A DNA stretch of 64,000 nucleotides, taken from assembly GCA_965197525.1 (NCBI GenBank), contig OZ240211.1, forward strand, positions 1,696,001-1,760,000, read 5' to 3'. Each line of letters opens with the position of its first letter. Positions within the stretch are counted from its first letter, which is position 1. The stretch comes from Nitrosopumilus sp. Lineage in GTDB: Archaea > Thermoproteota > Nitrososphaeria > Nitrososphaerales > Nitrosopumilaceae. Below the pieces are notes generated by a model. The model was not told the origin of the DNA, did not search any database, and was given only the letters and a program-made list of their open reading frames with translations. Positions 4,582 to 33,473 of the stretch are shown here, in pieces. Made by a program: the position numbers and the translations under genes.

Positions 4582-4600
4582 CTCCCACTCTGGGTTCAAG

Positions 4601-4761: not shown

Positions 4762-4812
4762 GATTGCTCATAAAACAGTCGTTTATGGAATTTGTAATCC
4801 GGATGGATAGCC

Positions 4813-6130: not shown

Positions 6131-7370
6131 TGATCTGGACCCTCTTTTTGGTACCACTTTCTGCATACTTTTCCGTATGATTCTATCCCTCATTTATTCC
6201 CACCCTCCAATTTGAGAACGAATTCATTGGGAGTGAGATATCCCAATGCGGAGTGAATCCTGTCCTTGTTGTAATCTACAAATGCTTTTGCTAAAACGAC
6301 CTCTGCGTCTTGGAAGCGTGCAAACTCGTGCGGCCAGACATATTCCCTCTTGAGTGTTTCATGGAATGACTCCACATGTCCGTTTTGCTCTGGAGTATTC
6401 TTCCAGATAAACTCGTGTCTTATTCCTAGTGTCTGCATGGATTTCTTGAATTCATGACTGCTGTACTGCGTACCGTTGTCAGTTCTAAGCCTTAGATGTG
6501 AGATATCTTTTACAGACGATACTGCCTTTAGCACAGATTGAACGGCTGTGTGTGCCGTAGCTGCAGCATCAAAGATGTATGATATCCATTCCCTGGTAAA
6601 CACATCTATGACGTTAAAGCAGTAACACCATCCGTCCATGCCGCAATGGATGTATGTCATGTCGGTCTCCCAAAGCTGGTTGGGTGCGTCAGGCTTGAAC
6701 TTTCTGCGTCTTGATGTACGAATTATGTCGTTTTTACTATTTTGAGGCTTATTCCAGCCTATTTTTCTATATATGCGCTGTATTTTTTTACGATTTGTAG
6801 GATGCTCGTCTCTCTTGCAACCTGTGCTGCCATGCGTCTGGTTCCGTACGTGGGCCACTTGGAGGATATCTTTCTTACCTTGTCTGTGACCTCTGCATTT
6901 ATCAGAACATCTCTTGGTTTTTTAGTATAATACCAAGCGTGTTTGGACATTCCGCAATACTGCAAGGCTTTGTTTAGACTCATCTCTTTGCTTGTTTCAC
7001 GTACTGCCTGCATCCTCATCGCTTTGTCCCCTCCAAAGTTTTTTTTTAAAACGTCGTTGGCTACGGTGATCTCACTGATTATACGCTTGAGATTCTCTAC
7101 CTCTTTTGCGTGATTTTTGGTCTTGCTTCCTTTGTTTAGGATGGCCTCCTTGCCTCCCTGCAGAAACTTGTCTTTCCAGTCTTGGAATGTGGTTGGAGAT
7201 ATGTTGTGTTTGCGACACAGCTCGGCAGCAGATATACTGGTATTGATAAATTCCATTACGATTATTGCCTTGTCTTGAGGGTTACGCTTCTTGTTCATAC
7301 CATTCCTCTAATCTCCTGCTCCAAAAAGTATACGGATTTGATCGGTTTCATTATAGAGGGGTCCGCACCA
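6131..7370 (-). mobile_element. IS3-family insertion sequence (~1.24 kb)
   Basis: Imperfect terminal inverted repeats TGATCTGGACCCTC (6131) and TGGTGCGGACCCCTC (7370, minus strand); orfA HTH plus orfB rve; no matching target-site duplication. Confidence 0.85.
6190..7298 (-). pseudogene. IS3 transposase orfA/orfB, frameshifted
   Basis: orfA SAAELCRKHNISPTTFQDWK; orfB WETDMTYI, RTDNGTQY, ESFHETLKRE (DDE); frame break near 6800. Confidence 0.85.
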
Positions 7371-17581: not shown

Positions 17582-17607
17582 GGGTTCAAATCCCCGTGGG
17601 CCCACTC
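17582..17607 (+). repeat. att-like duplication of tRNA-Val 3' end
   Basis: GGGTTCAAATCCCCGTGGGCCCACTC identical to 4559-4584 (26 bp). Confidence 0.9.
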
Positions 17608-17637
17608 TCATTTGGGTTCAAATCCTTTTTTGATGGT

Positions 17638-17783
17638 CTATAGGTTATTTTTGGTCAGTTTTATAGTAAAAACTGACGCATTCGGATGCTTTGCCACTTT
17701 GTTATGGGGTGAACGACTACCTTGTCTTCACTGCCCTCCTTTGTTATGGTCACAGGTCTATTTCCAATTGTTTCTTTTACCAT
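17638..17783 (-). pseudogene. small ORF remnant, second copy
   Basis: MVKETIGNRPVTITKEGSEDKVVVHPIT/KVAKHPNASVFTIKLTKNNL*; same frameshift as the copy at 4601-4761. Confidence 0.5.
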
Positions 17784-17834
17784 GATTGCTCATAAAACAG
17801 TCGTTTATAGAATTTGTAATTCGCATGGATGGCC

Positions 17835-18923
17835 TCACCTACACTGAAAATTCTTTATAACCATATACCCATGTGACTTGGCATTTTCATAATGCCTGTT
17901 GATGATCTTCTCAAATTTCTGATCGAGTCTAGTTAGTGATTTTTCTAATTTTGGTATCTCTGTTCGATAACTTTTGTTTCGATCAATCAGCTTGTTAATG
18001 TATTTTCTTGGCGGCAACGCTCCAAGTTTTCTGCAATTGCATTCCTTACATGCCAGAGTCAGATTCCAAATATCATCCTCTTCAATATAGTCAAATGGTA
18101 TCACGTGTTCTACCTCCGGCGTTGGCTTGTCGTATAACTGCTCTCCGCAGTAAAAACACTCTTTGAACAATGGGAACAGCATTTTACGATACGTTGTAAG
18201 GGAACCTCTCTTTGTGTTCCTGCCTTCAGTCTTGGCGATTATCTTTGGAAGGCCTACATTGAGCTTTTCCAGAAACCTTGCCCACTCTAAAATGACTGAT
18301 TTAAGAAGACATTGATTGTATCGCTTGAAAAATTCCCTGGCTCTGGGATTCAGATTTATCCCATGTTCCAAGTCAACAGATTTCTTGTTGCTGTGAAATG
18401 TTCTATCAATTTTATACTCAAAGAACAATCTGGCCTCGGTAGCCATGTTCACTTTAATCCTCTGAAATCTCCAGGTCACATTATGAAAACAGTGTTTTTT
18501 GATCCGCATTATGCATTTTCGGATTTTTTCAGGTTCTTTTTGGCGTATTTGCTTGAATGTCTGTGGATAGTATGCCTTTGTGAATTCTTTTTCTATAATT
18601 TTGACAATCATGGGCTTTTTTGTGGCTTGTGGAGCGTGCTTGATCTTTTTCTTGCATATCTGGGTCCAATAGTATTCTAAAAAGTATCCGGCAATAGTAT
18701 CAAAGCTGACATGCGTCTCTGTGCGCTCCCTGGAATAATCCAAAAGAAATCTTGCAAATGCAAACTTGTAGGTATTGTCTTTAGAACTACGACTGATTAT
18801 GTTGAAAAACACCTTTTCAAACTCATCATCAGAGATGTCATCAAACCTAATATCCTTGACCATGCTATCTTGTGATAAGATCGGTCGTATATGAAAATAT
18901 GGCAACGCAATGGCTACATCCAT
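17835..18923 (-). CDS. HNH endonuclease, copy 2
   Basis: 362 aa; 17 substitutions versus copy 1 by manual count; HNH/zinc motif intact. Confidence 0.85.
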   Translation of the reverse strand: MDVAIALPYFHIRPILSQDSMVKDIRFDDISDDEFEKVFFNIISRSSKDNTYKFAFARFLLDYSRERTETHVSFDTIAGYFLEYYWTQICKKKIKHAPQATKKPMIVKIIEKEFTKAYYPQTFKQIRQKEPEKIRKCIMRIKKHCFHNVTWRFQRIKVNMATEARLFFEYKIDRTFHSNKKSVDLEHGINLNPRAREFFKRYNQCLLKSVILEWARFLEKLNVGLPKIIAKTEGRNTKRGSLTTYRKMLFPLFKECFYCGEQLYDKPTPEVEHVIPFDYIEEDDIWNLTLACKECNCRKLGALPPRKYINKLIDRNKSYRTEIPKLEKSLTRLDQKFEKIINRHYENAKSHGYMVIKNFQCR

Positions 18924-19087
18924 GTCTTTCTAAATTATTTTGCAGACAACTCAATCTCGAGTATCTTTGATTGGTCATACTTGATCTGACAACTAAGATC
19001 ATCGCATGTTATAGAATATACATGTCTGCTACAAGCCGTAACCGGATCAAAATAGGTTCACATAAGGACTGGAATTCTGGCCTGATA

Positions 19088-20584
19088 CTATAATATCGTA
19101 GATTCGCCGTGGTTGACTGATTGTACATTGTTGTGCCATTTTTTATGGTATGATTCGTTTTCAAGGGAGGTATGAATTGGGATCAGTTTTTTTGCCTTTG
19201 TACCGTCAATTACACGCTTTATCTGTTGGCCGTCACCATGACCTGAGACATGCACCTGATTCCAGTCCCTCTCACTTGTAATCAATCCAAAGTGTTCAAG
19301 CCAGTTTTTGATCGTCTCTTGCCTGAATTCCATTTCTGCGTCAAACGGCTCCGTCAGTGACCTGATATAGCTAGAACCGTTGCTTGGTTTGATGTCTATT
19401 AACTCTTGTAGTTTGAAATCACTCAATGACAGCATTATCTCATCTTGTTTTTCAGATACGTCACGGTAGTCGATACTGTTGTCATATTCAAGAAAATCCC
19501 TTGCCCAACTACCATAATCCTCGCGTAAAAGTTTCTTGGTAAATCGATTTCTGTTCTTATCAACTAGTCCCCATTCGCCCTTTGGAATGTATATCCTGAT
19601 GTGTCTGTCATTAGGACTAGGGTATATCCCGTGCAAGTCAGCAGATTCGTCAAATAGTTTTAGCAGATATGCTTGCTTTAGATCTATTGCCAGATATCTG
19701 TCTGCAGCCTTTGCTGCAAGATAAAATGATTCAAGCCTGTCCAAATCTCGTATTGGATAGCCACACACAACGAGTTTTTTGGCATTACTTGCAATCTGGC
19801 TCACTTTCTCTTCTATGTCATACTCTGTCATGGAGGGATTCTGATCTATTCTGGTTCCCTCACACAATAACAGATCAAGTGATGCATCTGCACATTTGTC
19901 AACAAATCTTTCAGTATCTTCCTTACGCCTGCCATGAAATCGGAGATCTGCAGTATTTGCAATCATACCCTTTGATGTCTCCAAGAGAAAGCCATGAACT
20001 CCGGAGATCGAATGATCCACCGGCAACGGAGTCACCCTGATATCGCCAACGGAAAACTCTTTGTTACTTTCAAATACTTGTATGTTCCGAGGTATTTTAT
20101 TGCCTTTTTCTTTTGCCATCTTGCCTTTTGTAGGACCTCTCTTGATTTTATGAATCTGAAACTTTTCTGTCATCTCGATGTACTGTTCACCGACACCTGT
20201 ATCATCAAAGTTCTGCATGATTAGTCTTGATTCCTCTGAACAGTAAATTGGAATATCTTCTCTTAGATATTTTATGTATGCACAATGATCTACATGCGCA
20301 TGTGTTAGAAGAATCCCGTCGATCTCAGTATCTTCCCGTCCTCCTATTCCCATATGTCTTGCATAATCTCTCCTGTAGAGGCCTTTGATATTTGGCAAGA
20401 TTCCAAGCTCAATCATGTCGACTAGGCTGTTTGAGCCCCTGGCCTTCATGTATTCTGAAAAATATCTATTTTCTGCACTAAAACTCATGCCAAAATCCAT
20501 GAAAATTTTTGTATTTCTATCCTCTACTAGGAACTTGTTTCCACCAATATCTTTAACTCCCCCATGAAAGGTAATAGAGGTCAT
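19088..20584 (-). CDS. metallo-beta-lactamase fold hydrolase (RNase J / beta-CASP-like)
   Basis: FHGGVKDIGGN, DFG, LTHAHVDH, VDHS, TADLRFHG, EGT, HVSGH, LIPIHT motifs. Confidence 0.85.
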   Translation of the reverse strand: MTSITFHGGVKDIGGNKFLVEDRNTKIFMDFGMSFSAENRYFSEYMKARGSNSLVDMIELGILPNIKGLYRRDYARHMGIGGREDTEIDGILLTHAHVDHCAYIKYLREDIPIYCSEESRLIMQNFDDTGVGEQYIEMTEKFQIHKIKRGPTKGKMAKEKGNKIPRNIQVFESNKEFSVGDIRVTPLPVDHSISGVHGFLLETSKGMIANTADLRFHGRRKEDTERFVDKCADASLDLLLCEGTRIDQNPSMTEYDIEEKVSQIASNAKKLVVCGYPIRDLDRLESFYLAAKAADRYLAIDLKQAYLLKLFDESADLHGIYPSPNDRHIRIYIPKGEWGLVDKNRNRFTKKLLREDYGSWARDFLEYDNSIDYRDVSEKQDEIMLSLSDFKLQELIDIKPSNGSSYIRSLTEPFDAEMEFRQETIKNWLEHFGLITSERDWNQVHVSGHGDGQQIKRVIDGTKAKKLIPIHTSLENESYHKKWHNNVQSVNHGESTIL

Positions 20585-20934: not shown

Positions 20935-21696
20935 ATGTACATGTCTGCCCCAAACCGTAACCAGATCAAAATAGGGGCTAGAGTCTCAATTGAAACAAAA
21001 AAGAATCAGGGTACCGGTAAATTGACTGAAGGCACAGTAAAGACAATTCTAACTTCCTCTCAGATTCATCCTCATGGAATAAAGGTCAGCTTAGAAGGTG
21101 GTCAAATAGGTCGAGTAAAGCAGCTAGAGGATCAAAATCAGACTAGGGAAACTAACAAACCAATAGATTTGGACAAAATAGAGATACCAAAAACAGAAGA
21201 TGCAAGTAATGAGTTCAAAGAGTTCTACCAATATGACAAAAAAATACCGAATACAGATGACAAACAGGCAATAGGGGGAATAAAGCGTTCAGTACAGGAA
21301 CGATTTGCCACAGCAGTATGTTCCTTTGGTAATTCGTATGAGGGAGGATTTGTGTATCTGGGCATAAACTCTGATGGAGTTATAGTCGGATTGGAACAAG
21401 ATATGAAACTTGGAAAATTCTCAGATTATAGTGATTCATTTGCAAATCACATAGTAGACAAATTAGAGGATTTGTTAAAAGACAAGGTGTTTGTAACTAG
21501 TAAAATAAGGATAAAGTTTCGTCAGATTGAGAATAAAACAATATGTATAGTACATGTCTTGCCTGCAGATCGACCAATATATCTGCACACAAAATCAAAG
21601 ACGTTTTTTGTCAGAGGACCAGCACCCAAGGCAGTCAAATTTGACATGGATCAACAGTTCAAATATATCAAAGAACGATTTCCAAGATATGGTTGA
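20935..21696 (+). CDS. YwbE (DUF2196) - Schlafen/AlbA_2 fusion
   Basis: N-terminal NQGTGKLTEG...ILT...HPHGIKV...GRV (YwbE); C-terminal EFKE...AVCSFGNSYEGGFVYLGINSDG (AlbA_2). Confidence 0.75.
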   Translation: MYMSAPNRNQIKIGARVSIETKKNQGTGKLTEGTVKTILTSSQIHPHGIKVSLEGGQIGRVKQLEDQNQTRETNKPIDLDKIEIPKTEDASNEFKEFYQYDKKIPNTDDKQAIGGIKRSVQERFATAVCSFGNSYEGGFVYLGINSDGVIVGLEQDMKLGKFSDYSDSFANHIVDKLEDLLKDKVFVTSKIRIKFRQIENKTICIVHVLPADRPIYLHTKSKTFFVRGPAPKAVKFDMDQQFKYIKERFPRYG

Positions 21697-21705
21697 GGTA
21701 TACTA

Positions 21706-22662
21706 TTGACCAAGCTTTATCACAGTCCCATGTTTGATGAAATACGAGATTATTTTGAAAAAAGCAATCCAGATAATACAATTTACATTTTTGTACCATA
21801 CATCAAAACAACAGTATTAGAGAAGCTACTAGATGGTCTTCCCAATCCCAAAGTCATTGTCACAACTTGGAAGCCTAGAGATATTTTATTTGGTTCTTCT
21901 GAACTTGAACTGTATCCATATTGTCGTGATCAAAAAATCACATTGTATCTAAGCCCAAACATACACCTCAAGGTATACTCTGTGGAGTTGGAAGATGCCA
22001 TAATTGCAACCGGAAATGTGTCTAATCGAGGCCTTTTACCTAATGGAAACTATGAGGTTGGTGCAAACATTGAATCCCTCGATAATGATGATAGGTTGGT
22101 CTTTGGGAAGATACTCCATGAGGCAAGACTGGTAGATGATGTAATGTATGACAAGCTCACAGAATGGTATGAGAACAACAAGGTAGAGGCAGACAAGTAT
22201 CCTAGTCTGGAAGATATTGTGCCTCTGCCAGAAAAAGATGATTTTTCAGTGGCTGCATTGCCTATGACTCGTTCTGTAGATGAACTGGTATCGGGATACT
22301 TGAGGATTGTTGCAGGCAAGCGCCCATCTGAGGATTCTGAGATTGTCGCATGCGTGTTTCATGATATCGCAAATTATGATATATCTAAGGGACTATCAGA
22401 ATCTGAATTTATTGCAGAACTGACTCGAAGCTTTTTTGCACATCCGTTTATTCAAAGAATTGATGAATTTATTGCGCCAGAGGCATACTTTGGGAGAATA
22501 AAGGAATGGATTCAAGACAATTGCACTGATGTGCCTGTTCCAAGCAGACGAGAATTGACTGGAAACGTCCAAGTTTTATTGGAATGGTTTGAAAGGCTAG
22601 GAGATGGCAAATACAAGATAGATGTTCCAGGCAGACATTCACAAAGAATTAAAAAACTATAA
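21706..22662 (+). CDS. phospholipase D-family nuclease (single HKD-like motif)
   Basis: IHLKVY...AIIATGNVSNRGL...NYE; TTG start. Confidence 0.7.
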   Translation: MTKLYHSPMFDEIRDYFEKSNPDNTIYIFVPYIKTTVLEKLLDGLPNPKVIVTTWKPRDILFGSSELELYPYCRDQKITLYLSPNIHLKVYSVELEDAIIATGNVSNRGLLPNGNYEVGANIESLDNDDRLVFGKILHEARLVDDVMYDKLTEWYENNKVEADKYPSLEDIVPLPEKDDFSVAALPMTRSVDELVSGYLRIVAGKRPSEDSEIVACVFHDIANYDISKGLSESEFIAELTRSFFAHPFIQRIDEFIAPEAYFGRIKEWIQDNCTDVPVPSRRELTGNVQVLLEWFERLGDGKYKIDVPGRHSQRIKKL

Positions 22663-22679
22663 TCAAAACTCACTCAATA

Positions 22680-24299
22680 TCAAGTGTTCAGGTTTTTGTA
22701 TCTCCAAAGATCAGCGAAATATTCATCTGCAAGTTCTATTGACGGAAGTATGTCTAATATTCTGATCAACCTGAACTGTTCAGTACCGCCCATGCGCGGA
22801 CCGCGCATTCCGCGACCAATCATCTGCTGATGAAGCACTATGGATCTAGTGGGTCTAGCTATGAATACCACATCTATGTTGGGGGCATCAAAGCCAACTG
22901 AAAAAACATTAACATTGCATATGCATTTAATCACACCCTCTTTGAATTTTGATATGACATCACGTCTATACGCCATGGGTGTGTTCCCATCCACATGTGC
23001 CGCATTACCGCCCAACGCCAAAATTATGGCGCACATCAGCTTTGATTGTTTTAGATTGGGCGCAAAATATAATATTTGTTTGTTTTCAACTATCAACTCT
23101 TTCAATCGTTTGGCAATTGCGATATTTCTTATATTGTCCGCAGCTATCTCATCTAACAATGCCGGTGGAAGATCGTGATCATCGGCAAATCTTCTTCGTT
23201 GTTCCTGTGTAAGGATGAACTCTCTATTGGATTCAATCGTTTCAGGATCACAGTATGCAAGATACCCTTTTGATTGCAGATAGGATATGTTATCCATATC
23301 TCCAGAGTCTATCTCTATTATCTTATCGTTGAAATATTCACGTAATTTTGTGTTCTCTGGACTGTTCATTCCTCTTAGAGGTGTGGCAGTAAGGCCAACT
23401 ATTCTAGTGCCGTTTTCTTCAAGGCGCCGTATTACATTTTTGTGTGTACGTGCGATCACATTATGTGCCTCATCAGCCACCACAAGCTCAGGTTTGGGAA
23501 AATTACTGGAATCCAGCAAGTTATTCAATTTTTGATATGTGGCAACGATGAACGCATTAGGCTCGAAATTATTTGGATCATTCTTACCCCATACACGATA
23601 TACATGTAAATCGTCTTTGCCCAAATGTGACCAGATCTCTTGCATGGAAGTTATTGCCTGTTCGCATAACTCCTCACGGTCAGCAAGCCATACTACCTGT
23701 CTTTTTTCTCCTGCCTCTATGCCGTTGTTTAGAAAATTACTTACCATCTCCAAGGCAGTGCGTGTTTTGCCGGCACCGGTTGGCATTTTTATGATAAAAT
23801 GTACCCATGGATTCTCCACCAACCGCATTCCCTCGTAGAATACTTTACTTTGATACTCTTTTAACATTCGAAGTGGCTTGTTGGTAGGTATTGTGAATTC
23901 AGAAGTGCGATCCTGTTCTGGACTTGGAATTAGATTTTTGTCATACTCAAATTCTTCTATGAATGCTTGTGTTTCATTATTGCAACCCCATGCTAGTTTA
24001 GAAGCTTTCTCAATTGATTTTTCATATGCTTGATCATCTTGAGATGAAATAGGTATTCCGGTTCTCTGGAAAAATCTAAGACATTTCTTTTTATCCGCAT
24101 ATTTGAGAAGTTTTGCCCGAAATTCCGGTTTTTTGTAAGATGATATGTTTAGTGCATGATGAAGTTTGCCCAGCATATTTTTTGTCCCAATATCAAAATC
24201 TTCATTAGGGTTTATTTCCTTGAGAATAAAATTAAGCGTGTCCCAGTATTCTTTTAAAGAAAACTCTAATTCACTACGTGGTAATCTGTCATTTAACAC
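22680..24299 (-). CDS. SF2 DEAD/DEAH-box helicase (RadD/UvsW-like)
   Basis: MPTGAGKT, DEAH, GLTATP, VGFDAPNID, QMIGRGMRG. Confidence 0.9.
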   Translation of the reverse strand: MLNDRLPRSELEFSLKEYWDTLNFILKEINPNEDFDIGTKNMLGKLHHALNISSYKKPEFRAKLLKYADKKKCLRFFQRTGIPISSQDDQAYEKSIEKASKLAWGCNNETQAFIEEFEYDKNLIPSPEQDRTSEFTIPTNKPLRMLKEYQSKVFYEGMRLVENPWVHFIIKMPTGAGKTRTALEMVSNFLNNGIEAGEKRQVVWLADREELCEQAITSMQEIWSHLGKDDLHVYRVWGKNDPNNFEPNAFIVATYQKLNNLLDSSNFPKPELVVADEAHNVIARTHKNVIRRLEENGTRIVGLTATPLRGMNSPENTKLREYFNDKIIEIDSGDMDNISYLQSKGYLAYCDPETIESNREFILTQEQRRRFADDHDLPPALLDEIAADNIRNIAIAKRLKELIVENKQILYFAPNLKQSKLMCAIILALGGNAAHVDGNTPMAYRRDVISKFKEGVIKCICNVNVFSVGFDAPNIDVVFIARPTRSIVLHQQMIGRGMRGPRMGGTEQFRLIRILDILPSIELADEYFADLWRYKNLNT

Positions 24300-24309
24300 C
24301 CAAGTCCAC

Positions 24310-26088
24310 CTAATTCTTGTATGCTTTTCTTAGATGGTAACTCCATTTTACAAGATGTTCTTCCACAGTATTTCCTACGGATTGTGTACGGGTTAGATCA
24401 TCAAGATCATATTGGCCCTCAGCGTAGGCGTAGATGAGTCTGTCTATATCGGCCTTTAATTCTTTAGCGAGTTTTAACAGATCAGAATTTTGAGGATCAG
24501 CAGACAGGGCTTCTATTTCCTGGATTCTGCGATAAATCTCCACAAAAAATGGATGGCTCATATTATAATGGACTACTTTTTTGCCTACGTTGTCTAGCAC
24601 ATCTATGAATGGGCCGTCCGAGCGAGCCTTGTGATCGTGTATGATCTTATACGGCTTATCCGGATCCATTATCTCTGATACATATTTTTCTTGTTCTTCA
24701 GGATTATCAAAGAGTGTTTCTGCGTGTTGTTCTATATTGTCCTTGGCCTCTTCCGGAGATATCGTTGGCTGTAGCGGTGGACAAATTTCTGCAAGTTCTT
24801 TCTCGGTGCTGGTATGGCTTTGCAATGGTCCTGTTTCTGCTTCAGATTTCTTTTGATCCTCATCGGCCCAAACTTCTTCAAGCGCCTTTCTAAAATTGTT
24901 GATTATAGACGGTTGAAGTTTCTGTTGTAATATGTCTCTGAGTTCTTTAAGAGGTCTGGCGCCGATTTTTATATTCTTTACAGAGAACCAGTGATCTAAG
25001 ACCGGATCAAAATCTATCTCACATCCCCAAAACCTATCCGCTGGTTTTGTCGTCGGTGAAAATCTAGACATTGGACCATAATAGACCTCGCGGCCGTTTC
25101 TCAATATCGAAAACCCTTCATTTTCAAACACTCTTCTATCGTTATTAAATTTGCTACTTCCTCCATACCCCTTCAAATGTGCATTTTTTTCTCCTTTTCT
25201 CCAAGATTTAGGGAGCATGGATGTTCTGATTATGATCTTGCCTTTTTTCTCACCACTGCTAGGTGAATCTACAACATGTACCGGATGATCAAACACATGT
25301 TCAGGTTGGAGCGCTGCGCGGTCATCATCTGGAAATTTGGGATTTTTTGTAGCATAAAGTGGATCATGTGCGGTAACTGATACATTATTTGAACCATTAT
25401 CTATGAATATTTTCCGTAAATTGTTGTTTTTTATGGGCTTACCGTCTTTGATTATTTCTTCGCCTATGAATTTACGATAGATTCTGCCTAGACGATGTTT
25501 AAGCACATCTAGTTCAAATTCAGAATCAATTCGTTCAATCTTACTCCAAATTACTAGAGTACCATAGTCTCCCACCAGATCTTTGTATTCTGATGGAAGA
25601 TCTTTTTGCTCTACGGGATGCAGAAATGGATCTGCATCATTATCGATTCCACTGTTATCCAAAAATGTATATCTCCAATTCCCTTGTTTTTCTCTAGAAT
25701 ACACTTCAATTTTATCACATACATTGATTGCACCCATAGTCATTCGTGGATAGATTGATTGCACCCATAGTCATTAAACCACTCCAAACCTGCCTATTCC
25801 TTTACGATCATCGTATCTATTCGAATAGCCGATAGCTAGGCAATGTTGCAATGTATCAGAATCCATCCCGTGTCCGTCATCACCGACTGCTATACAAACC
25901 GGACGGGGCTTATGTTTGCCCTGCGGTGTACTCATCTTGAATTTGAGTCTAATCTCTTTTGCGTAAGCTTGAATCGAGTTATCAACTACTTCGTAGATTG
26001 CCGAATATGCATTAAAGTCGTTATTGCGAAGAGATTTTAGGGCGGCCCCAATACGTATGGGAGATATTTTTTCAGTACTCATTATCAT
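24310..26088 (-). pseudogene. GHKL (Hsp90/MORC-like) ATPase interrupted by a 33-bp insertion with two stops
   Basis: EVVDNS, DDGHGMD, GIGRFGV in 25774-26088; continues in frame into 24310-25764. Confidence 0.8.
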
Positions 26089-26112
26089 ACCCTCTGCATA
26101 CCCTTTTTTATA

Positions 26113-26952
26113 TTATAGGTGGCAGACAGTACAAGGTGTGGACTCGTCCTCCTCATCCAAGGCGTCTGCAAGCACATCAACTAGCGGCAGGTTCTTTCGT
26201 TTTGATTTGACTCTTTTGAGGTTCTCTGCCTGTCTGGCCATTATATCATCACGTCTTTCCAACAACTCGGTTAATGTCTCGCCTTCAGACCATGTATATT
26301 GCCGTCCCTTCATTCCACTTGATTTAAAATTCGCATCCCCTGCAACTCCTGCATCCTTGAGTATCTTTTGCTCGATTGCGACTGCACGCTTGAACAAATC
26401 AGGATGGTTGTCTGCAAGACCAACCCATTCAGATTTACGCTGAAAGAAGCAGAAATAACATCCGGAACGTGTCCGCCACTTGTAATAATCTGGCAGGTTG
26501 ATTCCTGCATCTTCTAGAATTTTTACTACACCCGCATGATCAATATCTGCATCAATGAATGGAAATACTGTCTTGATGTTGGGCTTGGTCGATATATATC
26601 CTGTCCTGTTTTTCTCATCTGCACGTATTGCCACATATGATATCACGTCATCATCACCTATCCAATCTTCTAGTGGTTTTATCTTCAACATGCTAGTACA
26701 CCACCTCATCTGTGGGGATGGCAAGGTGCCACGATATACTTCAAAATAGTGATCAAAACTTCGTGTAGAATTTAGTTTTTCAATTTTTTTGCCCAATACC
26801 ACCTCAAGCTTTGCAAGATATGCATATGTCTCTGGAAGTTCTGCACCAGTGTCACAAAAGAAATATTCCATGTCGGTAACTTTGTCTCTCATGTATACGG
26901 CAAGAGCACTAGAGTCTTTGCCACCAGAAATACCACAAACATGCCTTGGCAT
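26113..26952 (-). CDS. sspD: PAPS reductase-family protein (SspD-like)
   Basis: GISGGKDSS, CDTGAELPET, RWCT..LK, RSGCYFCFFQ; context with desulfurase, DUF4007 and ATPase. Confidence 0.75.
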   Translation of the reverse strand: MPRHVCGISGGKDSSALAVYMRDKVTDMEYFFCDTGAELPETYAYLAKLEVVLGKKIEKLNSTRSFDHYFEVYRGTLPSPQMRWCTSMLKIKPLEDWIGDDDVISYVAIRADEKNRTGYISTKPNIKTVFPFIDADIDHAGVVKILEDAGINLPDYYKWRTRSGCYFCFFQRKSEWVGLADNHPDLFKRAVAIEQKILKDAGVAGDANFKSSGMKGRQYTWSEGETLTELLERRDDIMARQAENLKRVKSKRKNLPLVDVLADALDEEDESTPCTVCHL

Positions 26953-27010
26953 GATACTAGAAATTTATTACATCATATAACTATTTAATATCAGACAATA
27001 ACTTGGAAGT

Positions 27011-27178
27011 TTATTTTATCTTGGCAGCTAGCGTGTCAAATTCCTTTTTTGAAACAGTGAGGCAGAACAATACCTTATCTGGCTTTTTGGCATTCTTTAC
27101 CATTGGATAGAATTTGATTACATATTTGCCGTCTTTTTTCGTGATATCGTATGGTCTATCGCCAATCTTGTCTCTCAT
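27011..27178 (-). CDS. 55-aa basic protein (below ORF-track cutoff)
   Basis: MRDKIGDRPYDITKKDGKYVIKFYPMVKNAKKPDKVLFCLTVSKKEFDTLAAKIK; homologous to two remnants next to the att sites. Confidence 0.6.
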   Translation of the reverse strand: MRDKIGDRPYDITKKDGKYVIKFYPMVKNAKKPDKVLFCLTVSKKEFDTLAAKIK

Positions 27179-27315
27179 GCGGTTTTTCAATATCCTGTGA
27201 TTTTATAGGTTTATCGGTAGTTTTTTCCCAAAATTCATTTGAAACTTAGATATTGTGCTTGGTAAATTGGGAATTCTACCAAAACATATTATACTTCTTT
27301 AGTGTAGTATATGTG

Positions 27316-27376
27316 CCTATATTCGAATCCTCTAGCCTAACATAGTTAGGGACCTAGGGGCTCATGTGAATATAGG
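27316..27376. ncRNA. candidate structured RNA / long hairpin 3' of DUF3800-like gene
   Basis: Nested stems CCTATATTC/GAATATAGG (9 bp), CCTCTAG/CTAGGGG (6 of 7), CCTAAC/GTTAGG (6 bp). Confidence 0.4.
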
Positions 27377-27381
27377 AGCTT

Positions 27382-27954
27382 TTATTTAAAAAAAGTCCGT
27401 AGTTCTTTTTCAAGATATTGTGTGATATCCATCGCAACCACGCCATCTGGTTCGAAACCTTTGTTATTTGACCAAGCAACCAAGTCAGATAACATGTGTG
27501 CATTTCCTTCTTTGGTATAACGCAAACCATTGTCTTTTGCAAAATTTTTACAGTCATAATCACATTGAAAATTGATCTCAGATAATGAAGTATTGTGTTT
27601 GTGTGTAAATTCTGTTATTTGATCTCTTATTCGATGCAATATTAAATAATTATATGCATGAAAAAGTTTTCCTATTGAAATCGAGTAATGCTTCTTCCTT
27701 AAATTATTTTTGAGCTTATCAATTATTGTCTTCTTGTCAATTCTAATACAAAATGCAATAGACTCATTATTATTAAATTTTAATTTTGAAACAAGCGTCT
27801 TACGATTATATTTGTATGTATTTTGAAGAACTTGTTCATATTCCAAATGTTTAATTATAGAATTAATATTCTCGCTTGTGCCAATAACGATTCCTAGATA
27901 TTTGTAATTTCCAATTTGAGTATTTCCAGAAACATCCATTCCTCCAATAATCAT
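27382..27954 (-). CDS. DUF3800-like protein
   Basis: N-terminal GMDVSGN...YLGIV and C-terminal MLSDLVAW, matching the DxSG...ADxxA pattern. Confidence 0.5.
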   Translation of the reverse strand: MIIGGMDVSGNTQIGNYKYLGIVIGTSENINSIIKHLEYEQVLQNTYKYNRKTLVSKLKFNNNESIAFCIRIDKKTIIDKLKNNLRKKHYSISIGKLFHAYNYLILHRIRDQITEFTHKHNTSLSEINFQCDYDCKNFAKDNGLRYTKEGNAHMLSDLVAWSNNKGFEPDGVVAMDITQYLEKELRTFFK

Positions 27955-27966
27955 AGTTTACTCCGT

Positions 27967-30900
27967 TTATTTTTCACTTAATATTGCCACAAGTGCATCG
28001 ACATCTTTATCTGTGAATCCGTTTTTCTTCATGTCTACAAGTATTTTGTTTACTATTTTTTCCATCTTCTTTTTTTGTTCTGGCTTCAAAGATACTATGT
28101 TATTATGTTCTCTACCATCAGCATGAGTGACGGTAATCTGATACGATGGTTTTACAAAATTGTCAGACACATCTGAAAAATTCATCGATGCAAGTCTTTT
28201 GAATCTTCTAGATACCTCAGCTAGATTATTCTCAAACAGTTCACACTGATCATCTTTCCAAGATTCTGGAGGAACATCTGTAAGGCTCAAAGCAATGTAG
28301 CTTATCCAATCTTCTTCCCTATCTATGGTATCTGAAGACACTACAGTCAAAAACACCTTCATTTTATGATCAGTTACATTTTTCAGCATGACTGAAGCGG
28401 CCTGTGAAACCTTTTTTCTGTCGTCTATTCCCGTGTAATCAAACAGCATTTTTTTAATATCCTGAAGCATTTTAGAATAGGCGTTTTGAAGATTAGTTTT
28501 TGATTTTGTTAGTGTTTTTGAAAACTTTGTGATCTCTGATTTTGATTTATCTGAGTTAAAAGAATCAAATCCCAAGGCCTTTGGAAGTGATTCAAACAGT
28601 AACGTGTCTGGCTCTCTTGCCTCAAGTATGGTATTTCTTACGGCAATAGTGTTTTTGTCTAGATTTTTGGTCTGTCTTGCATATGGTACAAGAACAGAGG
28701 TAATTCGCACCAGATGAGATACAACATCTAGTACACTGCCTTCTGAATTTATATCAAAATCTTTGATTACTGTACTTAGTAGTTGTTTTTTTGATGCAGT
28801 GCTTGTAAAATATTTCAACTCAAAATGGCTTGGATTTTTTATCATTCGCTCTACGATCTCTATTCCAAGTTTTGGTGAATACGTTCCATGCTCGTACAAT
28901 GCGATGTTGTTTTTGTAAATCAGTAAGATCGTAGTGATGATGATATCAATTGTACCTGTTTTCATGCCATATGGCGGCATCTTGCACAGTTGGTGTATCG
29001 AATGCAATGATACACGTTTTTTGGATTTTTTCAACATCTTCAATATTTTATCCCATACAGGATACAGAGTATTATCTGATGAGGGTGACTTTAGTTTCCA
29101 ATCAAGATTAGAATCAGCAACATGAATATTGTTTTTTACAAAAATTGCTTCATATACTGCACGATCAGGCCCGTAACCATCTATTCCAAAGCGTGCTTTA
29201 TTGGTATCAATTATCATGTTCTCTAGTAATTGTCGTTTTGCAGCAGTGCCCTGTGATGAAAGAATTGTACGGTTTATCATCTCATTGTGTATCTTGGGCG
29301 TATCTGGATATGCATCATCACTTACGGTGGATGCTATTGCACTTGGCGTTCCATTTAACATTTTGTTGTCATATGACCACCTTGCAGTACTGCCGTGCGT
29401 ATTGCCAAATTCTCTGTCCAGAATTATTTCTGCATCAGATAATCTCTCCTCTAGTTCTTTGTGTGATACCCAGTCTGATATTACATCCTGGTCATTTTCC
29501 AAAATGTCTCGAATTGCCATAACGTTAATTGCTTCACGGAGTAGTATTGACGTATCTTCTGGTTTTACTGTAATCAGAGGCTTGTTGCATATTACATTTG
29601 TCGAACTGCCTGTATCATACAGAATCGCACCATCATAGCTGTCATCTAGTATGATCTCAGAAGATGTTGCAAATCGTCTCTCAAAAAGTCTCATGGTACC
29701 ATACTTTATGTTGTGTTTTGCAGCCACCACAGGTTCTAGTTCAATGACATTTTGGAGCATTTGGGTCAACGAGGATTTCGAATATCGTTTCTTGTACATG
29801 TCAAGCTTTGCAGCTATGTCGATATCGGTACCATGCCATATGCGGTACTCGTCTGCATATTTTCTGTATGTAATGATGGATTTGTTTTGTAGTTTCTTTA
29901 GAATTTGTTTTGATTTTGCACCGATTACATAATCTATGATTTGTTGAGATGCTCTAAGGTATCCCGATCTTGCAATCAAATTAAGAATTCCAATTGTCTT
30001 CAATGTCTTAATTTCGATTTTGTCTAATCCATACGAGTCACGAATTATGGTCTCAATCTCCATGAGACGAGTTATGTTTGCAGAGCTAGAATTAATCATG
30101 CTTGTACCTGATATGAAGTAATCATACAGAGTATCCAATCCAATTGTGGGAGGTTTGTCATCTTGCCAGTAATTTTCATCGATAAATGTTGCAACCGTGT
30201 TCTTGCCACCGTCTGAGATAAAGGACAACAAAGTTCGCTCATGTTGTCCGTATCTTGAACACAGCTCAGGTAGGACTTCAAGCGCTAATGGCTCTAGAGG
30301 ATAACACGATGCAATCAGATCTGGATCGAATCCTCCTTCTATGCCAAGGTTCTGCAATAATTTTGCCTTGCTTTTGGCCCAATTTCTCACTATTCGGCGA
30401 CGGCTATTATTAGGGGTTAGCTTGATGGTGTTCGAGATTAATTGTCTTGTCTGATTTGGTGAATTTGCAAATGGGATGTCTTCGAATCTGCCCTGAATCT
30501 TTGCCCATTCTTGCTTTCTTGCATGGGATGCGCCTACGGCATATTCCTCAAACGCCATGTGCTGCAGCGTTATAATTGATAGAGGAATTTTTCTTCCCGG
30601 CCCGGACATTTCTGCTAGCTCTTGCAGCAAGAACAGATCGCTTTCCTGTGTTTCATCTGTGGTAAAATATTCTATATTTTTGCCAAATTCATCAAGGATT
30701 ATAACTACAGGAGCAATCTTGCACATATCTACAATAATTTCAGTTATTTCCGAAACAGAAGGCACTGTTTTCTTTAGATTTCTAATGTGTTTTTTTAGAT
30801 GTCGTGCCGTCGAAAAGTGCTTTGTTGTGTATTTGTCAAAATACTTTGTTGCACCATCATCTAATGCCTTTAATATGGTTGCCGTAATTGGTTCGCGTCT

Positions 30901-31293
30901 TGCAGTTATTGCACATACAAGCATTCCCTTCTGGTGAATGTTTGCTTTTTCTCGTGCATCTAAAAGTATGGTAGTAACATTAAATGACTCGCGTTTAAGA
31001 ACATTATGCGCCGTCTTCCATTCCGATTTATGTCGTGCTACAAGAAGGCCTTTGAGAAATGTTGCCATGGTTGACTTGCCTGAACCATACGGTCCTGTAA
31101 TTGAGAGCATTCGTCCATCCTTTGCACCTGAAAGTCCAGCTGAAAAACGCTCAACTATCTCCAGAGTACTTGCACTAGGAAGATAGTTCTTTAATGCGGT
31201 GATATCATCATGTTCAATATTTGTAGAATTGTATTCCTTTGGAGGGATTGTAACTAGTTTTGAGAGTGGCTTGCGTTTTTGAACTGTTTTCAT
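27967..31293 (-). CDS. sspC: large P-loop ATPase (SspC/BrxC-like)
   Basis: 1108 aa; Walker A GPYGSGKS, Walker B IILDEFGK; 1-bp overlap with DUF4007 gene. Confidence 0.75.
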   Translation of the reverse strand: MKTVQKRKPLSKLVTIPPKEYNSTNIEHDDITALKNYLPSASTLEIVERFSAGLSGAKDGRMLSITGPYGSGKSTMATFLKGLLVARHKSEWKTAHNVLKRESFNVTTILLDAREKANIHQKGMLVCAITARREPITATILKALDDGATKYFDKYTTKHFSTARHLKKHIRNLKKTVPSVSEITEIIVDMCKIAPVVIILDEFGKNIEYFTTDETQESDLFLLQELAEMSGPGRKIPLSIITLQHMAFEEYAVGASHARKQEWAKIQGRFEDIPFANSPNQTRQLISNTIKLTPNNSRRRIVRNWAKSKAKLLQNLGIEGGFDPDLIASCYPLEPLALEVLPELCSRYGQHERTLLSFISDGGKNTVATFIDENYWQDDKPPTIGLDTLYDYFISGTSMINSSSANITRLMEIETIIRDSYGLDKIEIKTLKTIGILNLIARSGYLRASQQIIDYVIGAKSKQILKKLQNKSIITYRKYADEYRIWHGTDIDIAAKLDMYKKRYSKSSLTQMLQNVIELEPVVAAKHNIKYGTMRLFERRFATSSEIILDDSYDGAILYDTGSSTNVICNKPLITVKPEDTSILLREAINVMAIRDILENDQDVISDWVSHKELEERLSDAEIILDREFGNTHGSTARWSYDNKMLNGTPSAIASTVSDDAYPDTPKIHNEMINRTILSSQGTAAKRQLLENMIIDTNKARFGIDGYGPDRAVYEAIFVKNNIHVADSNLDWKLKSPSSDNTLYPVWDKILKMLKKSKKRVSLHSIHQLCKMPPYGMKTGTIDIIITTILLIYKNNIALYEHGTYSPKLGIEIVERMIKNPSHFELKYFTSTASKKQLLSTVIKDFDINSEGSVLDVVSHLVRITSVLVPYARQTKNLDKNTIAVRNTILEAREPDTLLFESLPKALGFDSFNSDKSKSEITKFSKTLTKSKTNLQNAYSKMLQDIKKMLFDYTGIDDRKKVSQAASVMLKNVTDHKMKVFLTVVSSDTIDREEDWISYIALSLTDVPPESWKDDQCELFENNLAEVSRRFKRLASMNFSDVSDNFVKPSYQITVTHADGREHNNIVSLKPEQKKKMEKIVNKILVDMKKNGFTDKDVDALVAILSEK

Positions 31294-32312
31294 TATGTTA
31301 TCTGCTCCTGTATCATTGCAACGGGCATGATCTTTTTGTCATATGCCAAAGAAAGTATTTCTTTTGATGCTTCTTCAATAGAATCAAACACCAAGTGTTG
31401 CGCACCGTTGATATTTTGTAGTTTGATTGAATCTGAGATATCACATGCGTTTGATAGCAAATCCAAAAGGTCATTTTCATTTATCTTAAAGATGTTGCCT
31501 ATACTGCCTGCCTCCGTTGCCAATCTGCTAAGAGACACATTCTTGGACTTTATGTCAGAACGAGCTATAAAATCAAGGCATGCAAAGGCTGTAATCAGTG
31601 GAGATACTCCATATTTTTTGCCAAATACAAACCTCATAGTATCTCGTGAACTCTGTTTTATCATGTGGAGCTGTCTTAACGGGCAGTCAAGATAATCTTC
31701 CATGGTAAGTTTGTTCTGCCTAGTAGTGTATGTATGTACAAATACATCAATATCTTTTTTTATGGATTTTGCATGTGCAATAACGCAAGTGCCATCTGCA
31801 TGCCGGGCTTGGCTAGCTCAAAACTGCACGCTGTCGTGGATTGTTTGTGTTTTCCATTCGGCAATGTTTGTAATGCGAGTAGTAATTGACTCGGTCACAT
31901 CCTCAATCTTTACGTTTGTTGCATGAAAATCATTCATTATCATCCACCATACCGGAACTTTACATGGTGGTGCAAAAAGTAGCCAGTGTAATAACCATAA
32001 AGTATCTGGCTTTTCAAGATATGGATCAAGTCCATATTTGTCATCAAATATTATATCGCCTATTTCTGTGCTGACCATAGTCGTGTTTGCACCAGAACCA
32101 CATGCTTCCATTATCTTGTTTGCACGTCCCCAGAATTTTATTGCTCGAACCATGTTTTTTCCAACACCTAGTTTTACTGTGGTATCCTCACGTTTGAATA
32201 TTGAAGGATCGTCTTGTATCTGATCATATGCTTTTTTGAGCCATCCGTATCTGAGATGAAACGATTCGTGGTTTGCAAATGTAGGTTTTGGTATGGCCTC
32301 TGTAACTAACAT
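31293..32312 (-). pseudogene. sspB: DUF4007 protein (SspB-like) interrupted by an in-frame TGA within an apparent 69-bp insertion
   Basis: FANHESFHLRYGWLKK, LGVGKNMVRAIKFW, DPYLE..TLWLLHWLL; both ORF halves in the same frame. Confidence 0.8.
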
Positions 32313-33473
32313 CTATCTCAGATTCTCCGTAATCTCTGCCTCTTTTTTTCGTACAAACTCTGCTGCTTGTGCAATGTCTATTGCAGCAGTTTCAATGTCT
32401 TTCATCTCCGTATGTCTTCCAACAGATACGCGGATTGATTCGTCTGCTGCAGTACGATCTAGTCCCATTGCGGTAAGTACATGTGATGGTTCCATCGTAT
32501 TAGAAGAGCATGCACTTCCTGATGAGATTTCAATATGTTTAGTATTAACAATCACTGCGTCTGATTGTGCACCGTGTATTCTTATACTTGATGTATTTGG
32601 AAGGCGTTCTGTATTCTCGCCGTTTATCGTTACATTTGAAATGAGAGATTTTATTCTTGATTCTAAATTATCGCGCAGTACCAACAGTTTTGCTGACTCT
32701 TTTGGAATTATCTCGTATGCAATCTGGCATGCCTTGCCGAATCCCACGATTCCAGAAACATTTTGTGTGCCACTGCGCAGGCCTTTTTCCTGTCCTCCCC
32801 CATAAATCAACGGAGTCATGCTTTTCCGTATATGACGTGATGCCACAAATGCGCCTACTCCCTTGGGACCATACATCTTGTGGCTACTGCAGGTGGAAAT
32901 ATCTATTCCAAGGTCATGAATGTCGACTGGAATCTTACCTGCAGCTTGTGTAATATCGCTGTGAAGTATGGCGCCTGCATCATGGACAATCTTGGATATC
33001 TCCTTTATGGGGTTTATCACTCCGGTCTCGCTGTTTGCAAGCATTATGGATACCACGTCAGTTTCTGGCTCTATCTTTTCGCTTAATACATCAAGGTCTA
33101 TTACTCCATCAGATTTTACGGGAATTACAAATATTTCTGATCCGAATCGTTTCATAAAGTTGCATGGCTCAATGACAGACTTGTGTTCTGTAGCACCATA
33201 TAATATGCGGTGATTGTTTTCTATGTTCAGTCCAATTCCGGCTATTGCCATGTTGTTGGCCTCTGTAGCTCCGGATGTAAAGATGACGTCCTCCTTGTCC
33301 GCACCAATTAATATCGCTAACTTCTCTCTTGCGTCATCTATCAAATCCATTGCGTCCATTCCTGAGTCATGTGTGCTAGATGGGTTTCCAAATTTTTTTT
33401 TGAACACTGGAATCATTTCATCAATTACTCTTTGGTCTACTGGAGTTGTGGAATTGTAATCTAGATATACCAT
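32313..33473 (-). CDS. sspA: cysteine desulfurase (IscS/SspA-like)
   Basis: YLDYNSTTP, FTSGATEANN, HKMYGPKG, SSGSACSS; start re-placed at ATG 33473; stop abuts sspB start. Confidence 0.85.
   Translation of the reverse strand: MVYLDYNSTTPVDQRVIDEMIPVFKKKFGNPSSTHDSGMDAMDLIDDAREKLAILIGADKEDVIFTSGATEANNMAIAGIGLNIENNHRILYGATEHKSVIEPCNFMKRFGSEIFVIPVKSDGVIDLDVLSEKIEPETDVVSIMLANSETGVINPIKEISKIVHDAGAILHSDITQAAGKIPVDIHDLGIDISTCSSHKMYGPKGVGAFVASRHIRKSMTPLIYGGGQEKGLRSGTQNVSGIVGFGKACQIAYEIIPKESAKLLVLRDNLESRIKSLISNVTINGENTERLPNTSSIRIHGAQSDAVIVNTKHIEISSGSACSSNTMEPSHVLTAMGLDRTAADESIRVSVGRHTEMKDIETAAIDIAQAAEFVRKKEAEITENLR

Follow-up and report, generated by a model that had tools for sequence, protein, structure and literature searches.

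An SspABCD module beside a three-gene cassette

We analysed a 64,000-nt stretch of Nitrosopumilus sp. DNA (contig OZ240211.1 of assembly GCA_965197525.1; the whole stretch is hereafter the window), in which a set of DNA phosphorothioation (PT) genes of the Ssp type adjoins genes for a GHKL ATPase, a superfamily 2 (SF2) helicase and a phospholipase D (PLD) nuclease of 318 amino acids (P318). These last three genes, here called the trio or cassette, are our main subject. The genome that holds the window comprises 2.21 Mb in one contig and is 99% complete, with metagenome-assembled genomes (MAGs) of Nitrosopumilus and Cenarchaeum among its family mates. Gene identities between 20.9 and 33.5 kb were assigned from a list of open reading frames (ORFs) and three hidden Markov model (HMM) libraries (Pfam, PADLOC and NCBIfam), with ten window ORFs scanned against PADLOC (Table 1). 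The gene order that a first-pass annotation had read from the bare sequence (desulfurase, DUF4007 protein, 1108-aa ATPase, insert, PAPS reductase, GHKL ATPase and helicase, with a convergent PLD gene) was confirmed by the ORF list, Pfam, PADLOC and the fold of P318.

All four SspABCD components are present together, and there is no doubt, judging by the PADLOC scores, that the modification module is SspABCD; SspC also matched BrxC/PglY models, with scores far below those of its SspC matches. The sspA frame stays open to 33692, with a family match that starts only at residue 75, and SspA relatives are 386–391 aa long. Gaps are short throughout the adjoining cassette: 24 nt separate sspD from the GHKL gene and 10 nt the GHKL gene from the helicase gene, which converges with the P318 gene at a distance of 17 nt. 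A DUF2196/AlbA_2 gene lies 9 nt upstream of P318 in the same orientation, and the lower boundary of the cluster should be set at ~20935 to take it in. Relative to the corresponding locus of a Nitrosopumilus relative (L002), the half from sspD to the AlbA_2 gene (21166–26951) is 75% identical and the half from sspA to sspC (27924–33039) is 67% identical.

Table 1. Genes and ORFs of the Ssp cluster and its flank, in window coordinates.
Feature	Position	Strand	Basis
sspA, pyridoxal phosphate (PLP)-dependent cysteine desulfurase	32313..33473	-	PADLOC SspA 6.2e-135; Pfam Aminotran_5 2.8e-80
sspB (DUF4007, DNA-binding subunit)	31293..32312	-	PADLOC SspB 1.6e-53 and 1.6e-23, in two pieces
sspC, 1108-aa ATPase, BrxC-related	27967..31293	-	PADLOC SspC 1.6e-296; BrxC 4.8e-99
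190-aa ORF immediately after sspC	27382..27954	-	conserved in related thaumarchaeal Ssp clusters
55-aa ORF	27011..27178	-	read from sequence
sspD, PAPS-reductase-like sulfur-transfer enzyme	26113..26952	-	PADLOC SspD 5.6e-109; Pfam PAPS_reduct 3.7e-10
GHKL (MORC/Hsp90-like) ATPase, ~580 aa	24310..26088	-	HATPase_c_3 8.9e-13
SF2 DEAH helicase/translocase, 539 aa	22680..24299	-	ResIII 3.5e-22; DEAD; Helicase_C 4e-14
P318, 318-aa PLD nuclease with tandem winged helix (predicted)	21706..22662	+	fold match; invariant catalytic residues
DUF2196 and Schlafen/AlbA_2 protein	20935..21696	+	Pfam DUF2196 4.8e-24; SLFN_AlbA_2 1.6e-11
498-aa metallo-beta-lactamase (MBL)/RMMBL-fold nuclease-like protein	19088..20584	-	Pfam Lactamase_B_2; RMMBL

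The cassette adjoins phosphorothioation genes across archaea and bacteria

The gene neighbourhoods of the trio were assessed in 64 species-representative genome loci, annotated with iteratively built HMMs, and the GHKL proteins were placed on a phylogenetic tree. A single GHKL clade (Shimodaira–Hasegawa approximate likelihood ratio test support, SH-aLRT, 99) held all 36 proteins with an adjacent helicase gene, and 31 of these 36 loci had PT genes within 10 kb (Ssp in 23, Dnd in 8); the other five comprised three contigs of ≤4.4 kb, one locus at a contig end and one remnant flanked by insertion sequences. The P318 gene was also in the locus for 27 of the 36, an adjacent SF2 helicase and a nuclease being the arrangement that marks MORC/paraMORC operons (discussed below). 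Members of the clade come from Nitrososphaerota, Methanoregula, Woesearchaeota, Thermoplasmatota and at least 10 bacterial phyla, and its tree calls for at least five changes of partner, between Ssp and Dnd, for the cassette. Copies more distant from the one in the window adjoin dndB-C-D-E-A, and a Poribacteria locus is arranged exactly as the window is (sspABCD–GHKL–helicase, with convergent P318 and AlbA_2 genes and no DUF262 gene).

The nuclease served as a second, independent seed. Its profile matched 1,091 clusters at E ≤ 1e-30 among 1.84 billion protein representatives, and the two arbitrary representatives drawn from that search were both PT-linked. For a metagenome scan, in which a 14-sequence subset of P318 relatives was used, the full 28-sequence alignment being too diverse, we considered loci of at least 8 kb: GHKL genes were present in 24/28, helicase genes in 26/28 and PT genes in 21/28 (20 by the rule of the script, plus L106, which has dndC and dndB). 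The order of the trio varied among loci (GHKL–helicase–PLD, helicase–GHKL–PLD or PLD–helicase–GHKL), with the genes staying together.

At the genome level, P318 was found in 22 of 151 Nitrosopumilaceae genomes; 17 had sspB, counted above the Pfam cut-off, and 28 had dndE. Genomes with sspB or dndE made up 21 of the 22 with P318 and 12 of the 129 without it, a descriptive contrast, with no formal test, that the relatedness of these non-independent genomes overstates; the lone P318 genome with neither gene had a partial match of 42 bits. P318 was present in 16 of the 17 sspB genomes, and the co-occurrence of trio and sspBCD across genomes that the first-pass annotation had proposed as a check is far beyond chance. 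None of P318, sspB and dndE was found in nine congeners of the window genome, which argues that the island arrived as a unit.

Carriers in culture include Roseivirga seohaensis SW-152, Nitrincola alkalisediminis JCM 19317 and Trichormus variabilis ATCC 29413. In R. seohaensis (L021), sspB-C-D-A-GHKL-helicase-PLD lie on one strand; a single base separates the GHKL gene from the helicase gene, and the latter overlaps the PLD gene by 4 nt. Conjugative plasmid A of T. variabilis encodes, in order, sspB, sspC, sspD, two small genes, "DndB" (of DUF262 type), helicase, GHKL, PLD and a cysteine desulfurase, the trio thus lying on one strand within the ssp operon, between sspD and sspA; RefSeq names its members "DEAD/DEAH box helicase", "ATP-binding protein" and "phospholipase D family protein".

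These patterns bear on whether the trio might be an independent, ATP-dependent cassette of type I/III/IV-like character that shares defence islands with PT genes without being functionally linked to them, an account that we consider unlikely. Defence genes do cluster, and the island at tRNA-Val in the window holds HNH, MBL, AbiJ-like and transposase genes; operons of MORC-like ATPase, helicase and nuclease genes occur with methylases and without PT genes (PMC2292703); the SRA and EVE domains fused to some P318 relatives require no PT; and one Cenarchaeum MAG has a cassette copy (L006/L007/L017) without PT genes. Yet the trio adjoins PT genes, and no other type of defence gene, in the 31/36 and 21/28 loci from the two seeds and in many phyla; its genes stand in line with sspD at gaps of 10–24 nt in the window and between sspD and sspA in Trichormus; the contrast of 21/22 with 12/129 genomes points the same way; and no methylase gene was seen within the cassette.

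Two further GHKL clades were recorded. In a distant one (~24% identity; L057, L058 and L070, Alphaproteobacteria), the GHKL gene lies between dndA and a DndD-like gene together with a true PbeA (PADLOC 1.5e-225), and GHKL ATPases may thus also accompany Dnd–Pbe systems. The third clade (~30% identity; gut Bacillota L043, L055, L044–L054 and L068) lacks helicase and P318 genes; in L043 and L055 a gene for a cysteine desulfurase is next to the GHKL gene, and an sspC/brxC-like gene lies a few kilobases off.

A MORC-like ATPase, an SF2 motor and a PLD nuclease

Each of the trio proteins keeps its catalytic motifs across relatives. The GHKL protein has 315 homologues of ~580 aa; its family profile matches MORC4 (3e-8), MORC3 and MORC2, and its AlphaFold2 (AF2) model (predicted local distance difference test score, pLDDT, 84) matches Hsp90, MORC4, MORC2 and SMCHD1 over the ATPase and middle domains. 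Its Bergerat ATP-binding motifs (D68xGxG, G97RFGVG, G163T and N35) are invariant, and it therefore has the MORC-like N-terminal and middle domains together with the ATP-binding motifs. In the helicase, motifs I, II (DEAH), III and VI are invariant in 30 sequences, and the nearest solved structures are RadD (1.3e-15) and, for the C-terminal half, SauUSI (8e-11). The PLD domain of P318 was barely detected by Pfam (PLDc_2, E 0.0098), and the AF2 model of the protein (pLDDT 93.6) reveals residues 1–150 as a PLD domain of Nuc/BfiI type (Z 17.1 to SauUSI, 14.6 to BfiI and 14.1 to Nuc), superposing on SauUSI with a root-mean-square deviation of 2.0 over 144 residues. H87, K89, N104 and E117 are invariant in 28 sequences with Nuc-like spacing, which is the single-motif HxK...N...E signature of Nuc/BfiI members of the PLD superfamily.

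The remainder of P318 (residues 178–318) had Z scores of 6.3–8.0 to 3bhw, N.BspD6I, BrxA, FokI and SspB, middling values that suggest a tandem winged-helix DNA-binding module; a sequence search of this part against the Protein Data Bank (PDB) returned nothing meaningful. The tandem winged-helix recognition modules of the FokI, N.BspD6I, BrxA and SspB group share one fold (PMC10853773, PMC12839542). A complex prediction for the helicase with P318 scored 0.00, counting neither for nor against an interaction.

The same proteins could in principle act on the side of modification or its regulation, scanning or remodelling DNA for SspBCD or DndCDE, limiting PT density or, in the case of the PLD protein, nicking DNA for sulfur insertion. 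DndB is an example of a protein that limits PT density, GHKL ATPases and helicases are general manipulators of DNA, the trio is embedded in ssp operons and SspB-like winged-helix folds are among the matches of P318. We nevertheless regard such a role as very improbable. SspABCD and DndACDE suffice for PT in the characterised systems, which have no trio-like genes (PMC8092258, PMC10853773); within the family sample, P318 is missing from 11 of the 28 dndE genomes and 1 of the 17 sspB genomes; and a Nuc/BfiI-type nuclease with SRA or EVE tails next to a SauUSI-like helicase has the architecture of a restriction enzyme.

Modification readers and accessory genes

A set of 31 P318 homologues is longer (598–820 aa), 21 of them with a precomputed SRA_ScoMcrA domain (PF26348) and one (P0150) with an EVE domain. 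When the SRA-tailed nucleases were searched as a profile against the PDB, ScoMcrA was not among the hits, and a single sequence reached it at E 0.93. Two of the long homologues, both from planktonic marine ammonia oxidisers, sit in MBL–GHKL–helicase–P318 operons, one of which converges on dndA-E-D-C-B while the other contig ends just past the nuclease gene. At one Ssp-linked locus, a stand-alone sulfur-binding domain of ScoMcrA type is encoded between sspB and the GHKL gene (PDB 5zmo, 2e-9), and the GHKL and helicase genes are separated there by one for a PC4-like protein. Modification readers fused to a nuclease, or beside it, are what would be expected of the discriminating part of a restriction enzyme.

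Such readers raise the question of the direction in which PT acts. One possibility, to which we attach clearly less weight than to PT as protection, is that the trio senses PT as SspE does, with PT in host DNA, or at a bound PT site, stimulating the ATPases and nuclease, which would then damage invading DNA. P318 has a DNA-reading module of the kind found in FokI, BrxA and SspB; SRA and EVE readers in relatives, with a sulfur-binding domain nearby, typify modification-dependent enzymes; and SauUSI, a modification-dependent type IV enzyme, matches both the nuclease domain (as the best hit by structure) and the helicase (by sequence). Conversely, a PT-sensing enzyme would have to handle the single-strand CpsCA marks of Ssp and the double-strand marks of Dnd alike, and several archaeal loci hold the trio together with a DUF262/DUF1524 protein, an arrangement that recalls the coexistence of SspE with SspFGH, which has been explained by complementary modes (PMC8092258).

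Several accessory genes recur. An extra ORF of ~200 aa, absent from the window, lies between the GHKL and helicase genes in nine genome loci (eight bacterial and one from Woesearchaeota: L023, 11644–12309; L025, L026, L028, L029, L032, L038, L042 and L056) and in metagenome locus L086 (7735–8346), where it has a precomputed PC4 (single-stranded DNA-binding) domain. The DUF2196/AlbA_2 gene is present in 14 GHKL-seeded and 13 of the 28 PLD-seeded loci. Homologues of the 498-aa MBL protein (E ~1e-216) are encoded directly upstream of the GHKL gene in L081–L085 (~4800–6300), which are loci of planktonic marine ammonia oxidisers, and another lies near the GHKL gene in L013 (7810–9240); in that lineage, the system may also include the MBL/RMMBL protein.

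Genes between sspC and sspD

What the first-pass annotation had called an insert between sspC and sspD proved to be two ORFs of 190 and 55 aa, conserved in related archaeal clusters. Homologues of the first follow sspC in five such clusters and are seen at L001/L002/L008, L003/L010, L009 and L012. It had no Pfam, PADLOC or NCBIfam match; a weak lead to DUF3800 came from an atlas match (15% of the members of one cluster) and from one of five homologues (E 8.1), and the protein opens with a D-x-S-G motif. The region of the 55-aa ORF, which matches no family, is 73% identical at the DNA level to L002 (6941–7142) and 83% identical to the matching stretch of L009, and L003 has a called 55-aa gene at the equivalent position. 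In L002, the counterpart region of both small ORFs is 6249–7144. A bona fide DUF3800 protein is encoded elsewhere in the window (647–1357).

In the nearest intact loci, which come from MAGs of Nitrosopumilus and Cenarchaeum, the same genes are joined by one for a DUF262/DUF1524 protein of 588–627 aa between the small ORFs and sspD, for which the best PADLOC score is HEC-06 or Orf5, with SspE matched weakly. No tblastn match to this protein was found in the window or the genome, and the only PF03235 match in the 2.21 Mb is a 365-aa frame ~1.1 Mb away. Logan contigs of the two public sequencing runs that best hold the region (X1 and X3, from two samples) were compared with it, and an X1 contig spans 25779–31771 unbroken, across the site between the 55-aa ORF and sspD; because the read contig is uninterrupted there, the absence of the gene is real. 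A protein of the SspE kind, with DUF262 and DUF1524 and encoded with sspBCD, is therefore not found here. This agrees with the first-pass annotation, which had seen no DUF262 protein, PglZ or BrxL: tblastn finds no DUF262/GmrSD protein in the window, and no PADLOC PglZ or BrxL model matched the ten window ORFs. Its further claim that the trio stands instead of SspE applies to this strain and to many bacterial loci, but not to the nearest archaeal relatives, which carry the DUF262/DUF1524 gene in addition to the trio; for this reason we view the trio as an added module, not a swap. A 169-aa ORF upstream of sspA was considered as a candidate sulfur-binding domain and rejected.

Relationship to known effector systems

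No PADLOC model named for SspE matched any trio protein, and none named for DndF, DndG or DndH matched the ten ORFs or full-length relatives (whether the library holds such models was unconfirmed by name); against SspF, SspG and SspH there was no match at E ≤ 0.01, with only SspF models confirmed in the library. The window helicase reached 71 bits against PbeA (1.5e-20), over the helicase part only, compared with 749 bits for a true PbeA (L057) in the same scan, and 45.9 bits against TIGR04095, for which the cut-off is 600. P318 matches no PbeA model; of the PbeC and PbeD partners, the locus has no DndD- or DndE-type gene and there is no PF08870 match genome-wide. The GHKL protein is likewise not MzaB, its matches (NCBIfam 35.9 bits, cut-off 850; PADLOC 29 bits over the N-terminal 160 residues) being confined to the generic ATP-binding region.

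Among characterised systems, SspABCD–SspFGH of Vibrio anguillarum resembles the window in that sspBCD(A) is followed by a three-gene module with ATPases; should PT-free DNA be what the trio attacks, SspFGH would be its nearest counterpart. The three genes of SspFGH are required together; SspF reportedly has a Walker A motif, and SspH is reported to be somewhat like DNA translocases such as FtsK (PMC8092258). SspFGH can coexist with SspE, as the trio does with the DUF262/DUF1524 protein in relatives. Unlike SspFGH, the trio combines a GHKL ATPase of Bergerat fold with an SF2 helicase and a PLD nuclease, and it pairs with Dnd too. DndCDEA–PbeABCD, the archaeal PT defence in which PbeA is an HKD nuclease fused to an SF2 helicase (PMC10853773), likewise couples a PT module to an HKD/PLD nuclease and SF2 helicase in archaea. 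In the trio, however, nuclease and helicase are separate, the nuclease has a putative winged-helix module, and a GHKL ATPase stands in place of the CxC ABC ATPase (PbeC) and the DndE-like PbeD.

Similar logic is also found outside PT systems. SauUSI (PDB 7clg), an ATP-dependent type IV enzyme, combines a PLD nuclease, an SF2 motor and a modification reader; by structure the PLD domain matches it best, and the C-terminal half of the helicase matches it by sequence. It is, however, a single polypeptide for 5-methylcytosine and 5-hydroxymethylcytosine, with no GHKL partner and no PT link, whereas here three proteins are tied to PT genes. A restriction function was predicted in 2008 for operons that combine a MORC-like ATPase with an SF2 helicase and a nuclease (Iyer, Abhiman and Aravind; PMC2292703), and these MORC/paraMORC operons have, as here, a GHKL ATPase with an S5-type middle domain beside an SF2 helicase and a nuclease that is sometimes of HKD type. 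They were linked with methylases, with no mention of Dnd, Ssp or PT (PMC2292703), and that work describes neither a stand-alone PLD–winged helix-turn-helix (wHTH) subunit nor a near-obligate PT neighbourhood. ScoMcrA-type enzymes, with sulfur-binding, SRA and HNH domains, are nucleases encoded beside dnd genes that read PT or base modifications (PMC10853773, PMC7461809), and their domains recur here (SRA_ScoMcrA in some P318 relatives, the sulfur-binding domain separately at one locus); they are, however, single-chain HNH enzymes with no ATPases, and P318 of the window lacks an SRA domain and any recognisable sulfur-binding domain. Comparative papers on Dnd (PMC10853773) and on BREX- and Ssp-related systems (PMC12839542) mention no GHKL or MORC proteins, and no paper linking a GHKL/MORC ATPase to PT systems was found in the full-text literature, subscription-only papers aside.

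The new modification–effector pairing proposed in the first-pass annotation therefore stands in that the trio co-occurs with sspBCD and is not made up of known components (no match named for SspE, SspFGH or DndFGH, and a helicase far below true PbeA), but not as an archaeal, Ssp-specific pairing: the cassette also adjoins dndBCDE-dndA and occurs in at least 10 bacterial phyla. What is most likely new is a candidate effector module for PT-based restriction–modification, as judged from gene content and conservation, the MORC–helicase–nuclease theme itself being already known.

A candidate phosphorothioation-coupled effector and how it might work

Together, these results suggest that the SspABCD module and the conserved three-gene cassette probably form one restriction–modification-like defence system, in which the trio would be the effector. 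A broader proposal, for which we see roughly even chances, is that the GHKL–helicase–PLD/wHTH trio represents a new and widespread class of PT-coupled effectors, one that is interchangeable between Ssp and Dnd, has swappable readers (winged helix, SRA, EVE or sulfur-binding domain), is the main Ssp partner in Nitrosopumilaceae, links a prokaryotic MORC-like ATPase to a defined epigenetic mark for the first time and accounts for part of the ~84% of sspBCD loci that have no known partner.

We infer that the trio is an ATP-dependent nuclease complex whose decision between self and non-self uses PT. SspABCD would put the PT mark on host DNA; the helicase would move along DNA with ATP; and the GHKL ATPase could serve as an ATP-gated dimerising clamp or switch, like MORC and MutL. 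P318, which with its single HKD motif probably must dimerise to cut, would then cleave DNA whose PT state signals it as foreign, that state being read by the putative winged-helix module or, in some relatives, by SRA, EVE or sulfur-binding domains. In the mode that we prefer, PT-free DNA would be attacked and PT would shield the host, as with SspFGH and DndFGH. This PT-blocked mode is favoured because the trio coexists with the DUF262/DUF1524 protein, as SspFGH does with SspE, and because the trio almost never occurs without a modification module, although both modes predict such co-occurrence. The DUF2196/AlbA_2 and MBL-fold genes may be lineage-specific accessories.

Several observations weigh against this interpretation. 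The function of the trio is deduced from architecture and neighbourhood, and co-occurrence separates neither an effector from a modification accessory nor a PT-blocked from a PT-stimulated mode. The fusions to SRA and EVE domains would also fit a plain type IV enzyme with no need of PT; the SRA call itself depends on precomputed PF26348 matches and a motif read by eye, and the winged-helix assignment on the middling Z scores given above. In the window, the PLD gene converges with the helicase gene and is not co-transcribed with it. No PT gene was seen in 6–7 of the 28 PLD-seeded loci, although most of those contigs are truncated, and the counts within the family, which come from related genomes, overstate the association. 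Finally, the Cenarchaeum copy (L006/L007/L017) has GHKL and helicase genes and, within 10 kb, neither P318 nor any PT gene; it is flanked by five transposase genes, the helicase of L006 is a 293-aa C-terminal fragment only, and the locus is probably a decaying copy of the cassette.

PT modification is widespread, and it is a standing puzzle that most sspBCD loci and many dnd loci lack a recognised restriction partner. Neither sspE nor sspFGH was found at 83.9% of 2,678 sspBCD loci, and further partners were expected (PMC8092258). A cassette found with Ssp and Dnd alike, in archaea as well as in many phyla of bacteria, offers a concrete candidate with which part of this gap might be filled. If our interpretation is correct, the trio would be a sixth effector type beside DndFGH, PbeABCD, SspE, SspFGH and DndI, and prokaryotic MORC-like ATPases, kin of eukaryotic chromatin silencers, would gain a defined DNA mark. 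The system is probably the main PT-linked antiviral system of marine and sponge-associated ammonia oxidisers.

In-frame stops in sspB and the GHKL gene

Two genes of the cluster contain in-frame stops in the window, TGA in sspB and TAA TGA in the GHKL gene, and the first-pass annotation had assumed that they need repair. Both stops lie inside insertions that have no counterpart in relatives: ~69 nt in sspB, judged against L002 and L009, and 33 nt in the GHKL gene (25746–25778), the latter an imperfect tandem copy of the following 20 bases. Among the Logan contigs, a 7.9-kb read-derived contig has zero mismatches to the window, omits exactly 25746–25778 and puts 6 nt in place of sspB 31772–31846 (joining 31771 to 31847); contigs of the second sample have both of the same joints. 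The joined read-derived forms are GRFGVGMTMGAI and EWKTPSPKSIKKD, which match the consensus of relatives, and the net length differences (33 and 69 nt) are both multiples of three. Because read-derived contigs lack both insertions, the genes need no repair, at least in part of the population; sspB and the GHKL gene are probably intact at least in the dominant DNA of the two samples, and the two insertions would stem either from the assembly, as an artefact, or from a minority allele. Read-through by pyrrolysine or selenocysteine was considered and dropped, the stops being TGA and TAA TGA and within insertions. An 8-mer, ATCCACGA, is common to both insertions; it was rejected as a significant signal (5 window matches against 1.7 expected, a count equalled in 3 of 100 shuffles).

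Tandem islands at tRNA-Val

A tRNA-Val gene spans 4507–4582 of the window, and 13 kb downstream (17582..17605, + strand) lies an exact copy of the 24 nt at its 3' end (4559–4582), which none of 100 shuffles matched. Alongside, ~1.5 kb that includes a gene for a 362-aa HNH protein is repeated with 89–91% identity (4591–6130 and 17613–19156). This looks like a pair of tandem integrated islands at tRNA-Val, with the 24-nt copy marking the boundary between them: the first has an IS3-type transposase, an AbiJ-like gene and a DprA/SLOG-like gene, and the second, downstream, has the Ssp cluster. Farther along the window (55527–58100), an 857-aa protein of nine DUF285 repeats (E 2.9e-229) is encoded by DNA with 50% G+C, compared with ~39% elsewhere.

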